DNA from: Escherichia coli | GTDB taxonomy: Bacteria > Pseudomonadota > Gammaproteobacteria > Enterobacterales > Enterobacteriaceae | DNA length: 64,000 bases | Reading direction: 5' to 3' (one strand) | Assembly: GCF_044324785.1 (NCBI RefSeq) | Contig: NZ_CP172127.1 | Part shown: in pieces, positions 46,565-54,422 of the stretch | Position numbering within the stretch: position 1 is the first letter of the stretch | How the letters are laid out: each line of letters opens with the position of its first letter | Program-made: the position numbers and the translations under genes | The notes under the pieces: model-generated | Database searches by the model: none | Told to the model about the DNA's origin: nothing | Seen by the model: the letters and a program-made list of their open reading frames with translations, nothing else

Positions 46565-49500
46565 TTACCACTGAATACCGGCACCGAGTGCGGCGGAGTA
46601 TTCACCCTGGCTATTGGTACTACCTTGTAATTTGTAGACCCAACGACCATTGGCGCTCACCATCGACACACCTAAAGCAACAGCCGACTCACCGTTGTAA
46701 GTACCGCCACCAATAGAGGCCATACTGGCACCTGGAGTGTAAGCCTGCGGCAGACCGGTCATTGCCATTGCAGAAGCGATACCACCGCTCAACTTGCTTT
46801 CGGTTTTGGACAGTTTGTTATCCATCTCAACCATCCGCTGATCGGTGTATTGCTTCGTTTCCTGCACGCTTTGCTTCAGCTGCGCATAGTTCACTGCGTC
46901 GTTGTTGTTCACGCCAGCGGAGACGTTGCTGATGCGAGTCGTACCGCCATTACCACCACCGAGAGTGATGTTGCTGTAGTCTACAGAGCCATCAGCTTTG
47001 GTGTCGTAACGAACGCCGCCTGCCTCAGAAGACTTCAGCTGCGAAACGTTAACCGCATCGGTGGCATTAACACCTGCAGCAACGTTGGTGATACGACGCT
47101 GGTTGGTAGAAGAACCCACAGAGATGGTATTTTCTTCGTTGGCCACGGAGCCTGTACCCAGCGCGACGCTGTTGTCAGCGGCAGCAATGGAACCAGAACC
47201 AATCGCAACACTGTCTTTACCCTGCGCGTTGGCATCTACGCCATCGGTGTTGGTCTTGAAGTATTTGGTGCTACCGGTGGTTACGATATCGCCAATGCCG
47301 TTTTCGATATTGGTAACGCGAGTATCCAGATTCGTCACCTGATTGTTCAGGTTAGTAATGCTCTGGGTATTCTGGGAAACCTGCGCGTCCGTTACTTTCA
47401 ACTGACCCACGTTGACCGCATCGGTATCAGCCGAACCAGCCGCGACGTTGGTGATCTGACGTTGACCGTCTTCACTGCCGACAGAGAACTCACCCACAGA
47501 GTTCTGCGGTGCATCCATGTTGTAGGCGGTGTAGCCAGTTTGAGCACCACGAGTCGTCTGTGAGCCATTACCCATAGCAATGCTGTTTGCATGGTTTGCA
47601 CGCGCGTTGCTACCAATAGCAATACCGTTGATCGCATCAGACAGAACCAGAGTGTTCAGGCCGATACCAATGCCCGCATTACCATTAACGATAGTATTCG
47701 CGCCCATTGCCAGCGAGTCAGTACCTACTGCCAGTGAATCTTCTTCCGTTGAATTAGCGTGGAAGTATTTAGTCGGCGTGGTTGCAACTGCACCAATGGC
47801 ATTTTGCAACTGGCGAACCGTAACGGCGTCATGGGCTTCGGAACCATCGGCTACGTTGATGATTTGACGATATTTACCATCATCACCAATAGACAACGCA
47901 CCAAGTAGTTCGCCATCCGTGGTGTCATAACCAATCACAACACCTTCTTCCGACACGCTGGTGTCACGAGAACCTTTAACTATTACACGGCTGGAAACAG
48001 AACTGCTACCCAGGGCGATACCCGTATCAACGTCGCTGTAGCTGTCCTGACCGATGACTACACTGCTATGGCCTTCGGCAACAGCGTTATAACCCACGGC
48101 CACGCTGCTATCGCCTTTGGCAACAGAGTCATAACCGACAGCGGTAGAGCCGATACCAACTGCGCTGGCGTCGTTGAACGCTAAGCCCTTATCGTTGGTA
48201 CGCACATAGTTAATACCTGCACCATTTTCGTTGATATAGGATTCGCTGGTGTCACCGGCAAGCTGATTGATGATTTCGCTGTTCTGCTGGATCATCATAT
48301 TGGTGTTAAACAGCTGAGAACCGTTGATGGCGTCGGTACTGCCTTCGCCAATGTTACCATCAGCAACGTTTGTGATGATGCTGGCCTTGCCGTCATGGCT
48401 GGCGTTGTAGGCACCTGCACCGTCATTGGCCGTTGCATCCCACAGCAGAGCGTTATCGTCGAGCGCATCCAGGGCGTCACCGACGTTGTTGTACTCGGCA
48501 TTTGCAATGGTGTAACTCGGCGCAGTGATAGTGCCGTCAGCGTTAACTTCTGCGTCACCCCCCAGGGCATCGGCAATGTATTTGTTGGTGGTATACAGTT
48601 GTGAACCGTTAATGGCATCGCTGCTGGTGGCAGAGATTGCACCGTTAGCGACGTTAGTGATTACACTGGCTGTTTTATCTTTTCCGTGAGCGGCGCTAAA
48701 TGCACCATTACCATCATTGGCTGTAGCATCCCACAGCAGGGCGTCATCCAGCGTGGTATCGATCGCTTCCAGCGCGTCACCGACGTTGCTGTAACTGCCG
48801 CCAGCGATGGCATAAGTCGGTGCGGTGATTGTGCCGTCAGCATTGACTTCTGCGTCACCACCCAGAGTATCGGCAATGTACTTGCTGGTGTCATAGAGCT
48901 GTGAGCCGTTAATAGCGTCGCTGCTGGTAGAGGAAATTGCACCGTCTGCAACATTAGTAATGATGCTGGCCATGTTATCTTTTCCGCGACCGGCGCTAAA
49001 CGCACCGTCACCGCCCTTGGCGGTCGCATCCCAGAGTAGGGCGTCACCGAGTGATGTGCTAAATGACGTGTTAATGGCTGCCAGAGCCTCACCGACGTTA
49101 TTGTAGTCAGTACCACCAATAGTGTAGGTTGGCCCGGTTAATACACCCGCATCGCTGATATCAGCACCACCGCCAAGGTATGACGTAAATGAATCAGCTA
49201 AGCCATAAAGTTGTGAGCCATTAATGGCGTCAGTGCTGTCAGAGGATACTGTGCCTGCCAGTAAGTTGGTGATTTTGCTGTCAGTACCGTTGGTGCCGTG
49301 TTTGGCACTGAATGCACCCGCCGTAGCATTCCACAGCAGAGAGTCATCACCGAGACTGTCAACAGCATCACTCAGGTTGTTGATATTGGTAGTGTTGGTG
49401 GTGATATTGGCGGTATTGGTCGCCACGTTATCGTTGGTGGTTTTCAGCTGAGAGCCGTTAACCGCGTCGGTGCTGCCAGCCGCCAGTTCACCGGCTTTGA

Positions 49501-52279
49501 CGTTGGTGATTTTGTTGGTGGCATCGGTGCCGTGCGCGGCGCTGAATGCTTTCGCTGCATCATTCCACAGCAGAGAGTCATCACCGAGACTGTCAACAGC
49601 GTCAGTCAGGTTGGTGATGTTGGTGGTGTTCGTGGCGATATTGGTGGTGTTGGCTGCCACGGCATCGTTAGTGGTTTTGAGCTGAGAGCCGTTAACCGCG
49701 TCGGTGCTGCCAGCCGTCAGGTCACCGTCTTTGACGTTAGTGATTTTGCTGGTGGCATCGGTACCGTGTGCGGCGCTGAATGCTTTCGCTGCATCATTCC
49801 ACAGCAGAGAGTCATCACCGAGACTGTCAACAGCGTCAGTCAGGTTGGTGATGTTGGTGGTGTTCGTGGCGATATTGGTGGTGTTGGCTGCCACGGCATC
49901 GTTAGTGGTTTTGAGCTGAGAGCCGTTAACCGCGTCGGTGCTGCCAGCCGTCAGGTCACCGTCTTTGACGTTAGTGATTTTGCTGGTGGCATCGGTACCG
50001 TGTGCGGCGCTGAATGCTTTCGCTGCATCATTCCACAGCAGAGAGTCATCACCGAGACTGTCAACAGCGTCAGTCAGGTTGGTGATGTTGGTGGTGTTCG
50101 TGGCGATATTGGTGGTGTTGGCTGCCACGGCATCGTTAGTGGTTTTGAGCTGAGAGCCGTTAACAGCGTCGGTGCTGCCAGCCGTCAGGTCACCGTCTTT
50201 GACGTTGGTGATTTTGCTGGTGGCATCGGTGCCGTGCGCGGCGCTGAACGCGGTGCCATTCCACAGCAGGGCATCGTCTTTAAGGTCGCCAACGGAATCA
50301 GTCAGGTTGGTGATATTGGTGGTGTTGGTCGCTACGTTATCGTTGGTGGTTTTGAGCTGAGAGCCGTTAACCGCGTCAGTGCTGCCAGCCGTCAGGTCAC
50401 CGTCTTTGACGTTGGTGATTTTGCTGGTGGCATCGGTGCCGTGCGCGGCGCTGAACGCGGTGCCATTCCACAGCAGGGCATCGTCTTTAAGGTCGCCAAC
50501 GGAATCAGTCAGGTTGGTGATATTGGTGGTGTTGGTCGCTACGTTATCGTTGGTGGTTTTGAGCTGAGAGCCGTTAACCGCGTCAGTGCTGCCAGCCGTC
50601 AGGTCACCGTCTTTGACGTTAGTGATTTTGCTGGTGGCATCGGTGCCGTGCGCGGCGCTGAACGCGGTGCCATTCCACAGCAGGGCATCGTCTTTAAGGT
50701 CGCCAACGGAATCCGTCAGGGTATTGATACTGTTAGTGTTGGTGGTGATATTGGCAGTATTGGTCGCTACGTTATCGTTGGTGGTTTTCAGCTGAGAACC
50801 GTTAACCGCATCCTTACTGGTATCAGAAATAGCGCCGTCTTTAACGTTGGTGATGGTACTGGTAGTATCTGTACCATGTGCCGCACTATATGCCTTTTTA
50901 AGGGAGTCCCATTGTAACGTATTATTGTCCAGGCCCGTTAAGGCGTCGCCAACAGTGCCGAAAATACCACTTTTCAGCCTGTAATTTGGGGAAGTAACGA
51001 CGCCTTGCGCATTGACGGTAGCCCCCCCACCAAGATTGTCCGCTACTGACTTACTGATAGCATAAAGCTGTGATCCATTGATGGCATCAGTACTGGTAGT
51101 GCTGATATCACCTGCTGCCATATTGACAATTTGTCGCTGAGCTGTTGTGTTACCCACAGAAACAGTATCCGCGTCAGTCGCTACAGAACCAGCACCCAGA
51201 GCAACTGAATTTTTCCCCTGAGCACTGGCTTGAGCACCAATTGCAGTGCCATTTTCTAAACCGGCATAACTGCCTTGTCCAAGAGCAATAGCATTTACAC
51301 CACCTGTAATACTACCATTACCCAGCGCGATAGCATTTGCGCCGTCAGCTTTATTCCCTTGACCGATGGCAATTGCGCCAGCCGCTACTGCCTGACTTTG
51401 ATTGCCCAGAGCAATCGTGTTGTCGACATCTGCAATACTGCCGGAGCCCAACGCGATACTATTAAGTCCATTTGCCTCCGCGTTAGTACCAACTGCCGTC
51501 GCATTTTCAGCAGCTTTGCTCTCTGCACCCATAGCAATCGCGTTTGCGTCGCTGGCGGCGGATAGTCTGCCTAATGCGAGGCTGTCTACGCCAGCAGCAG
51601 CACTGTTACGGCCTACTGCAATCGCGTTAGCTGCAGATGCGGCACTACTTGCACCCAGCGCCATTGCATATTCTTTCGACGCATTAGCCGTTGCACCGAG
51701 GGCGATACTCATAATTCCTAAGGCCTTGCTCTTACGTCCAAATGCGATGGCGTCATCAGCACCAGTCTCTGCGTAATCCCCTTGTGCAATAGCAAATTCA
51801 CCTGTTGAGTTTGCATAACGACCAAGTGCGATTGAAAATCCACCCGTTGACGTTGCCGATGCACCTATAGCGAGGCTTCGCTCACCTGCTGAGATAGTGT
51901 TAATCCCTAACGCCACTGATGCTTCGCCAAGCGAATGGGTCTTAGCACCGAGGGCTGTTGACCACCTTCCGTCAGCAGTTGAGTGATAACCTACTGCGGT
52001 GCTGGAGCCACCCCCGGTGTCTGTAAAGCTATTTGCTTTTGCATCTTCACCGATAGCAACCCAGCCTGTTCCTGTGCCCTGGCCATAATTGACGCCCTGA
52101 CCGTTGTCAATCCCGGCATTCGCCAGTGCCCCAAACGACGACAACAACCCACCCGCAACCAGGGCAGAAATTAACAGCTTACTGCGCCCGCTCTTTTTGC
52201 CACGGCTTTTGGCCGTTTCGCTGGCAACGGTGTAACTGCCCGTAGCCGGATTCCAGATAACTTTAAAAATTTTGTTCAT
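46565..52279 (-). CDS. trimeric autotransporter adhesin (YadA-like membrane anchor; UpaG/EhaG/SadA family), 1904 aa
   Basis: N-terminal extended signal peptide [21 protein letters not shown]...; hundreds of residues of NxxAxG/SxAxG head and neck repeats; C-terminal YadA-type anchor ...[41 protein letters not shown] ending in aromatic residue. Confidence 0.9.
49452..50800. repeat. near-identical in-frame tandem repeats inside the autotransporter gene (3 x 234 bp then 3 x 207 bp)
   Basis: Antisense ORF track shows identical 71-aa peptides at 49704 and 49938 (period 234) and identical 62-aa peptides at 50172 and 50379 (period 207); in the sense frame the protein repeats [48 protein letters not shown]... 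Confidence 0.85.
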
Positions 52280-52322
52280 TATTGATGCTCTCTATTCCTT
52301 GATATAAGCGCAGAAGCTGCAT

Positions 52323-53006
52323 TTATTTTTTGTTTTTTCGCTGCCGAGTTTCAGCAGGTTGAACAGTGTCGAACTGGAGATTGGCCATATTGATGGACAA
52401 CTTCAGATACTTCAGGTTATTAGGCGAAACGCCTTTTAATGTCAGATTAATGTCTTGCCATTGACCAGGCATTAATTGCAGAGTGGAATTCATGGTGGTG
52501 TTGAAAAGTAATTGTTGCCACTTTGCCAGAGCTTTGGCATCGGTGGGTCTTTCATTGCCCCATGTCGCATGAAAGCCAATATTTGATACGGGAACGCTTA
52601 AAAGGTTAACCAGCGAAATACGAATAACACTGCCATTTTCAACCGCATCAATAGCCAGCACCCGGCCTGCCAAACCGACCGATCCGTTATTTAAAATGAA
52701 ATATTGTGTTTGTGCTGGGTTAAATTCTGTAAAGACAAATTCGTCCTGCTTGTCTTTAACCGCTTTCACCACGCCAGCGAGCGTTTTGGTACTATTTATG
52801 ATGGTAGTTTGTTGTTTTTCAAAATGTTCTATCTTTCGCTTATCGAGTTCCTGTTGTTTCTCAAGCGCCTCAATTTTGCTTTTTTGCAACTCTTGCTGTG
52901 TAACGAGGTCGTCGACCTTACTCGCTTTTTCAATATAGTCACACCCTGCCAATAAGCAGAGAGGCACTATTATTAACACGCTTAACAGTGTTTTCTTTAG
53001 GTTCAT
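52323..53006 (-). CDS. SadB-like lipoprotein (putative trimeric autotransporter export helper)
   Basis: Lipobox LLAGC after signal peptide; coiled-coil segment QQELQKSKIEALEKQQELDKRKIEHFEKQQ; encoded immediately upstream of and co-oriented with the autotransporter, as sadB is with sadA in Salmonella. Confidence 0.6.
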   Translation of the reverse strand: MNLKKTLLSVLIIVPLCLLAGCDYIEKASKVDDLVTQQELQKSKIEALEKQQELDKRKIEHFEKQQTTIINSTKTLAGVVKAVKDKQDEFVFTEFNPAQTQYFILNNGSVGLAGRVLAIDAVENGSVIRISLVNLLSVPVSNIGFHATWGNERPTDAKALAKWQQLLFNTTMNSTLQLMPGQWQDINLTLKGVSPNNLKYLKLSINMANLQFDTVQPAETRQRKNKK

Positions 53007-53494
53007 AGGATGAATTCCTTTTCATAATCCCGATACGTTGATAATTACAGTACAATCATTTTTTTTATGAATGATTAGAGTGGGGCATATCCGCCAAATA
53101 AATTTGTTAGAGAATTTTTGTATTAATGGGTTGTGCGAATATGTTTTTAAGTGTCAAACAATTTTAGTTTGTAGCCAATAAATAAATTGATCGCGCGGAT
53201 TTTAATGATCGCTGTCAATCAATGTCAAATGTTTCACCGGATAAAGGCCCAGGGAAGGGAAAGGTAAATATTCAGTTGAGTGATGTTTTATTGCGAAGTT
53301 TGCGATGCTGATAGAAAAATTTAAATAATTAATTATGTTTCAAGCATTGATATGCGGTAATTCATTGCTGATATTGATACATCATTATTTAATTTGTACC
53401 TGCTTTTCAGAATTTAGCCTGCTCCGAGCGCTCAGAAGTGTAGGTGGAGTTGAATATATAATGTTAAGAACGTTACAAATATTCGATCTCTGAA

Positions 53495-53525
53495 ACAGGC
53501 TCCTGCATGTGCCAGCAGGAGCGAG
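53495..53525 (-). terminator. stem-loop downstream of yibL
   Basis: ggctcctgc-atgtgcca-gcaggagc 8-9 bp stem. Confidence 0.4.
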
Positions 53526-53566
53526 TAAATCGTGAGTGGCTGTAATTACAGCGACGAGAAAGGAAC

Positions 53567-53929
53567 TTAAAACGCAGTCTTAGAGAATCCAGTCATCTCC
53601 TGCAGGCCCATTTCACGGCCCAGCGCGGTCATTGGGTGCACAACGACCAGTCCGCGAACGCTCTTCTTCAGTTTGCCCATATCAGCTTGCTCTTTTTTAG
53701 TAATCGCGCGCTGGAACGGCATCTTCATCAGCTTCTGTGCTTCCTTACTGAGTTTCTGGCTGTGAACTTCGCGCAGGCGAGCAATTTCTGCTTCCAGAGT
53801 GGCTTTCTCTTTTTCCAGTTCGGCATATTTGTCTGCGGCTTCCACCAGCGACAGATCGGCCTGCTGGTGACGGATGGCGTCCAGACGATCGCTGAGACGT
53901 TTGATTTCGTTTTTTTCGACTTCTTTCAT
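53567..53929 (-). CDS. yibL: YibL family ribosome-associated protein
   Basis: 120-aa [55 protein letters not shown]... Confidence 0.85.
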
Positions 53930-54212
53930 GTGATGACTTCTGATAGAGATAAATTTATAGCCTCTAGTATGCGCGACCAGGTGCTTTGTTCACAACTGAT
54001 GACATTGCAATAGTTCTATAACGTAATCATTAACTTGCTTAAAAAGCACGCAATTTGTTGATTAATTAAGAAATTTAAAGAAAAAAGATAGTTAACAGAA
54101 GCGGATGATTATTGAGGATTGAGCACGTTTTCCTTAATGTCATTTATACCGGGATCTAAACTAAAATTGGCGGCCGCGCATTCCCGGCGCGGGGTAATAC
54201 GGAGATATCATC

Positions 54213-54422
54213 ATGGGCAAATTAGGTGAAAACGTTCCGCTTCTTATCGATAAAGCCGTAGATTTCATGGCATCCAGCCAGGCGTTCCGGGAGTATCTGA
54301 AAAAACTACCTCCCCGTAACGCGATTCCGTCCGGAATACCTGATGAAAGCGTGCCGTTATATCTACAACGTCTGGAGTATTATCGTCGGCTTTATCGGCC
54401 GAAACAGGTAGAGGAGAAGTAA
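54213..54422 (+). CDS. yibT: small protein YibT-like (69 aa)
   Basis: ORF at the position occupied by yibT between yibL and mtlR; symbol from position, sequence not independently verified. Confidence 0.55.

Follow-up and report, generated by a model that had tools for sequence, protein, structure and literature searches.

The question raised by this Escherichia coli locus is whether two closely spaced GATC sites, lying in the AT-rich DNA upstream of a lipoprotein–adhesin operon, form a Dam-dependent switch, or whether they sit incidentally in a promoter that is silenced by other means. The window, that is, the whole stretch of DNA analysed, is 64,000 nucleotides long, and the region in question occupies 560 bp of it (positions 53007-53566). 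Gene order and flanking genes identify this region as the intergenic spacer between yibL and sadB, with the following neighbours:

46565..52279, minus strand: trimeric autotransporter adhesin (TAA) gene of the UpaG/EhaG/SadA type, 1904 aa (Pfam domains, position)
52323..53006, minus strand: SadB-type inner-membrane lipoprotein gene (PDB 4C47 match, lipobox)
53007..53566, no strand given: yibL–sadB spacer, regulatory region of the sadB–TAA operon (35% GC, flanking genes)
53567..53929, minus strand: yibL, the upstream gene, on the same strand as sadB

The lipoprotein matches the crystal structure of Salmonella SadB (PDB 4C47) over residues 23-227 with E = 2e-70, and its translation carries the lipobox LLAGC followed by Asp. 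It is named "SadB/YajI family lipoprotein" in RefSeq and is also annotated as a DUF3251/SadB-family protein. The adhesin has the Pfam domains ESPR (PF13018), YadA_head (PF05658), YadA_stalk (PF05662), and YadA_anchor (PF03895). The annotated gene order, lldD-lldR-lldP-TAA-sadB-yibL-yibT-mtlR-mtlD-mtlA, is that of the sadBA/upaG/ehaG location; sadBA was described between mtl and lld with an intergenic gap of 44 bp (PMC3953254), and the gap between sadB and the adhesin gene is 43 nt here (52280 to 52322). The lipoprotein–adhesin operon named in the first-pass annotation is therefore borne out, with a YadA-type adhesin as its second gene.

Equivalent positions in other strains are occupied by related gene pairs. 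CFT073 has C_RS20890 (c4423) and upaG in an identical gene order, and O121:H19 has ehaG, which makes the adhesin the positional orthologue of both upaG and ehaG. The window belongs to a close relative of E. coli N3 and not to N3 itself: positions 52300-54100 are 100% identical to N3, the flanks being 99.1-99.6% identical. The adhesin gene exceeds the N3 RefSeq version by 300 nt (1904 vs 1804 aa), and its internal repeats align with one another at 79-92% identity; judged from these alignments, the length difference is repeat-number variation in the stalk. E. coli K-12 carries a deletion that begins just past the yibL stop codon and ends downstream of the adhesin gene, and it cannot serve as a source of regulatory data because the deletion takes the whole spacer, sadB, and the adhesin gene.

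The composition of the spacer is distinctive at the local scale. Its GC content is 0.354 vs 0.489 across the whole window, and sliding 200-bp windows from 53000 to 53499 have GC contents of 0.315-0.335. The AT-richness is local but not unique, since the window has more AT-rich stretches at 21-25 kb and 60-62 kb. The first-pass annotation had called the region strongly AT-rich and a likely target of nucleoid-protein silencing; the former is confirmed by these values and the latter is supported, though it was already known, UpaG at the orthologous locus having been cited as H-NS-repressed. H-NS regulation at the upaG/ehaG locus is already published and is not new here: PMC5012682 places UpaG among the H-NS-repressed autotransporters of UPEC (Totsika et al., 2012, as cited there). 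When the spacer was scanned for the Lang-type H-NS consensus motif, no match exceeded dinucleotide shuffles, and H-NS occupancy in this strain is presumed by analogy with the orthologues.

Expression data from related loci point in the same direction. Overproduction of TosR in CFT073 raised c4423 by log2 5.1, and a locus check identified c4423 (C_RS20890) as the CFT073 sadB homologue upstream of upaG. TosR is a PapB-family regulator for which both binding to AT-rich DNA and counteraction of H-NS are predicted. For Salmonella sadBA, native inducing conditions have not been established in the literature (PMC3953254). STM3690 was down 4.2-fold in an anaerobic Salmonella fur mutant, and hns was up 3.1-fold in the same mutant. 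The data on TosR, on Salmonella sadBA, and on STM3690 are consistent with a silenced promoter that needs anti-silencing. The promoters of UpaC, UpaH, F9, and SslE are likewise sigma-70 promoters within AT-rich DNA, and these systems are culture-silent and derepressed in hns mutants, as described in PMC5012682. Set against these H-NS-silenced autotransporter and fimbrial promoters, the present region shows no apparent difference and looks like a typical example.

The position of the promoter within this AT-rich DNA was addressed by a consensus scan and by alignment of orthologous spacers. The candidate elements are as follows:

53223..53228, minus strand: predicted −35 hexamer, TTGACA (consensus scan; TTTGACA invariant in 17/17 spacers)
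53199..53204, minus strand: predicted −10 hexamer, TAAAAT, after an 18-nt spacer (ATTA[A/G][A/C]AT in 17/17 orthologues)
53007..53192, minus strand: predicted sadB 5′ leader, 186 nt, AT-rich (start placed from the −10 hexamer)

The predicted promoter matches the consensus at 11/12 positions and is the sole outstanding site in sense orientation; the scan found no other sense-strand match of at least 9/12 in the spacer. When the spacer was dinucleotide-shuffled, 3% of the shuffles reached 11/12, and the 64-kb window holds only three such sites on its two strands together. The hexamer spacing falls within the 16-18 nt of sigma-70 promoters, and both hexamers are conserved in orthologues. From the position of the −10 hexamer, the predicted transcription start would lie at about 53192/53191 on the minus strand.

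The alignment comprised 17 spacer sequences from E. coli haplotypes, E. fergusonii, E. ruysiae, E. marmotae, Salmonella, and two Pseudocitrobacter species. They were drawn from three sources: E. coli haplotypes, including ST131 and the O121 ehaG strain; a scan of species-representative genomes; and contigs with distant SadB homologues (E. fergusonii, Salmonella enterica, Pseudocitrobacter corydidari, E. ruysiae, and E. marmotae). The genome scan, run with a single SadB protein, returned five loci, and the distant orthologues were added via a protein search and contig look-ups. Across the 17 spacers, the only invariant blocks are TTTGACA and, 17-18 nt further on, ATTARMAT; the rest is barely alignable between genera. 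The distance from the promoter to the sadB ATG is held at 171-210 nt in all taxa aligned. In independent scans, the same promoter was the best sense-strand match in Salmonella (10/12), in O121/EhaG (11/12), and in CFT073/UpaG (11/12). The site is assigned as the operon promoter because of this invariance, the fixed distance, and its independent re-finding in orthologues. The upaG locus of CFT073, the ehaG locus of EHEC, and Salmonella sadBA thus resemble the present locus in their mtl–lld position, in the pairing of a lipoprotein with an autotransporter, and in the −35 and −10 elements; unlike them, the promoter of this strain is a derived haplotype, with a 3-bp insertion and with a T-to-C change that gives it a second GATC at +1.

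Between the −10 hexamer and the predicted start lies a GC-rich discriminator, CCGCGC (53193-53198), which is kept in Escherichia and in P. vendiensis and is not kept in Salmonella or E. fergusonii. By comparison with stringent promoters, this discriminator might confer sensitivity to ppGpp/DksA.

Taken together, the region is probably the sadB–TAA spacer with a sigma-70 promoter set in H-NS-silenced, AT-rich DNA, in which the GATC sites are incidental. RNA polymerase would start from the near-consensus promoter at about 53192/53191 and would transcribe a leader of about 186 nt to the sadB ATG at 53006. The promoter would be embedded in about 500 bp of DNA with 32-35% GC, of the kind that appears to be bound and silenced by H-NS at the orthologous loci. 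It would follow from such silencing that the operon is off in culture unless silencing is relieved, as in an hns mutant or on TosR overproduction. The GATC at +1 would have arisen in one E. coli sub-lineage through a T-to-C change, and the other GATC would fall at −18 to −15 in the promoter spacer; neither would be a conserved control part, and the locus would carry no epigenetic switch of the pap or agn43 type. The GATC sites are accordingly presumed to have no regulatory role.

A different assignment of the conserved block has to be weighed at this point, namely that it is not the operon promoter and instead drives a separate short leader transcript or forms a protein site, with sadB being transcribed from a more proximal start or by read-through from yibL. 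The length of the 186-nt leader is in keeping with such an arrangement, and so are its conserved blocks, one at 53145-53172, found in the alignment, and the other a palindrome:

53054..53076, minus strand: palindrome or hairpin AATCATT-N9-AATGATT in the leader (alignment, folding)

The palindrome is kept in Escherichia and in P. vendiensis, with one paired change of C:G to T:A in E. marmotae, and it may act as an operator or form a small RNA hairpin. Read-through is made possible by the weak U-tract of a hairpin downstream of yibL:

53500..53521, minus strand: GC-rich hairpin CTCCTGC-N8-GCAGGAG (46 nt past the yibL stop codon)

This hairpin is conserved in Escherichia and in P. vendiensis in the alignment and is probably a yibL terminator or 3′-end element; it was not called by the terminator scan because its T-run is weak, and transcription of yibL might continue past it into the sadB spacer. 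Against a separate leader transcript, however, the terminator scan found no minus-strand terminator-like site between the promoter and the ATG. The consensus scan, as noted, offered no second sense-strand promoter in the spacer from which sadB could be served, and the distance of 171-210 nt between promoter and ATG recurs in every taxon. The leader likewise lacks the marks of an independent RNA element: no Rfam family reached its gathering score in a scan of 52900-54300, and alignment folding with RNAalifold across genera returned an empty structure, so that a conserved leader fold was not found. That the block serves something other than the operon is, on this balance, quite unlikely.

The sole Rfam match at E ≤ 1 in that scan was U4, at 16.6 bits vs a threshold of 46 (E = 0.5), which is attributed to chance. 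The leader folds no better than its shuffled versions (z-score −0.36). A riboswitch, a thermometer, or an sRNA in the leader was considered and rejected on the Rfam result, this z-score, and the missing conserved fold.

Further upstream, the alignment revealed one more conserved element:

53404..53412, minus strand: conserved motif TTCTGAAAA (alignment; 170-182 bp upstream of −35)

The motif TTCTGAAAA is present in 15 of the 17 spacers, including those of Salmonella, E. fergusonii, and Pseudocitrobacter, and the remaining two have TCTGAAAT at the aligned position. Its distance to the −35 hexamer is constant (170-182 bp), though the intervening DNA cannot be aligned across genera. On the strength of this sequence conservation, TTCTGAAAA may be a distal regulatory site.

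The GATC sites that raised the question of methylation are the following:

53207..53210, no strand given: promoter-spacer GATC, about −18 to −15 (10/17 aligned sequences)
53189..53192, no strand given: GATC at the predicted start, at about +1 to +4, a derived minority allele (alignment, allele counts)
53485..53488, no strand given: third GATC, just downstream of the yibL hairpin

The first-pass annotation had reported two GATC sites 18 bp apart and had speculated that they could underlie methylation-dependent phase variation. The positions of the pair are exact, 18 bp from start to start, and the two sites bracket the −10 hexamer; the third site at 53485-53488 had been missed. The number of sites is ordinary, with three observed vs about 1.7-2.0 expected from composition (P(≥3) = 0.31), and a pair within 18 bp arose in 9% of first-order Markov simulations (P ~0.09). 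In the window, 17 of the 230 gaps between consecutive GATCs are 18 bp or shorter. A denser cluster, with three GATCs in 37 bp (60365, 60377, and 60398; 60365-60401), lies elsewhere in the window, in the intergenic DNA from yibH to an Imm57-family immunity gene beside an Rhs element.

Conservation of the pair is poor. Of the 17 aligned sequences, 10 have the promoter-spacer GATC, among them P. vendiensis and most E. coli of the haplotype family; its retention there could reflect constraint rather than drift. No promoter GATC is present in the other seven (ST131, O121/EhaG, Escherichia sp. E1V33, E. fergusonii, E. ruysiae, E. marmotae, and Salmonella); in place of the promoter-spacer GATC, ST131 has GCTC, O121 has CATC, and Escherichia sp. 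E1V33 has AATC. The GATC at +1 is found in the N3-like sequence and in one other of the 17, and a first alignment also had it in a metagenome contig (L005). CFT073, the UpaG reference strain, has GATT at the +1 position. A count over 5426 complete E. coli genomes gave 336 with the exact two-GATC allele and 797 with the GATC…GATT allele, and the haplotype family of the spacer comprises about 1295 genomes at a coverage of at least 80%. The pair is therefore regarded as a derived minority state, given its poor conservation and the allele counts of 336 vs 797.

Dam-dependent phase variation would mean that an OxyR- or Lrp-like protein competes with Dam at the GATCs and so sets a heritable ON or OFF state in strains of the N3 haplotype. 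The arrangement has some resemblance to known systems. The agn43 (flu) gene also encodes an autotransporter adhesin. Its regulatory region has three GATCs at intervals of 19 and 13 bp, the first of which falls on the annotated isrC start, just upstream of flu; here, one GATC lies at the predicted +1. The best match to the OxyR consensus in the spacer (13/20, 53164-53200) stands directly after the −10 hexamer and covers the +1 GATC, from +1 to about +30, and it exists only in the haplotype with the 3-bp TTT insertion, other haplotypes scoring 7-10 at the homologous position. As a positive control, the genuine OxyR site in the K-12 agn43 regulatory region scored 14/20 by the same scan, so a score of 13 is not far from that of a true site. 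The same control shows that the OxyR consensus scan has no discriminating power, because the genuine site reaches only 14/20 and a background of 13/20 is common: the window holds 20 matches of at least 13/20, and 13 was reached in 29% of shuffles. Furthermore, in agn43 the three GATCs fall within one OxyR site, whereas here the weak OxyR-like match holds the GATC at 53189 alone and the one at 53207 lies outside it, upstream of the −10 hexamer. The GATCs also lack the conservation across orthologous loci that would be expected of an agn43-type switch.

Like pap, the locus has two GATCs in AT-rich DNA ahead of an adhesin operon. In pap, each of the two GATCs belongs to a set of Lrp sites, about 102 bp separates them, and the regulators PapI and PapB are encoded locally. 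Unlike this, the GATCs are 18 bp apart here, and no gene for a PapI/PapB-type regulator is adjacent, the neighbours being yibL and sadB only. The best Lrp match that overlaps the pair scores 10/15, and the best anywhere in the spacer, 13/15, does not exceed shuffles. Consensus scans of the spacer for OxyR, Lrp, Fur, CRP, FNR, ArcA, and IHF gave nothing above dinucleotide shuffles. Most genomes that have the promoter do not have the +1 GATC, and ST131, O121/EhaG, and the sister species keep the promoter without any GATC in it. A search of the available literature found no link of GATC sites or Dam to upaG, ehaG, sadA, or yibL. There is thus no good evidence for a methylation switch, because the GATC pair is neither statistically unusual nor conserved, and the suggestion of phase variation is left unsupported, with no OxyR or Lrp match above background; such a switch is very unlikely at this locus.

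A milder role for methylation, in which methylation, or transient hemimethylation following replication, at −18 to −15 and at +1 to +4 alters RNA polymerase binding or open-complex formation directly, would tune promoter strength without any heritable switch. Such tuning has been described for IS10 pIN and for other promoters with a GATC in their core. This alternative is kept because the footprint of RNA polymerase at the predicted promoter takes in both GATCs, and the retention of the promoter-spacer GATC in 10 of 17 orthologues, as far as P. vendiensis, agrees with it. It is nevertheless unlikely, although less so than phase variation or a non-operon function of the conserved block, given that both GATCs lie clear of the −10 and −35 hexamers and that many lineages keep the hexamers without the GATCs.

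The derived allele allows one further proposal, in which the recent 3-bp insertion and T-to-C change of the N3 haplotype placed the +1 GATC inside an OxyR-like site, next to the second GATC at −18 to −15, and made the operon Dam-sensitive or bistable once H-NS silencing is relieved. If true, this would be a newly evolved epigenetic switch in an otherwise non-phase-variable autotransporter operon, with the ancestral alleles as natural controls. The idea is highly improbable. Should the minority allele prove Dam-sensitive, it would offer a rare view of an epigenetic switch arising by point mutation, which is unlikely on present evidence.

The preferred reading of an H-NS-silenced sigma-70 promoter with incidental GATCs makes the region an ordinary adhesin promoter under H-NS silencing, at a locus where regulation by H-NS has been published. 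What it adds, as a by-product, is a conservation-backed position for the sadBA/upaG/ehaG promoter together with the upstream motif, and both could guide reporter and footprinting work on this operon.
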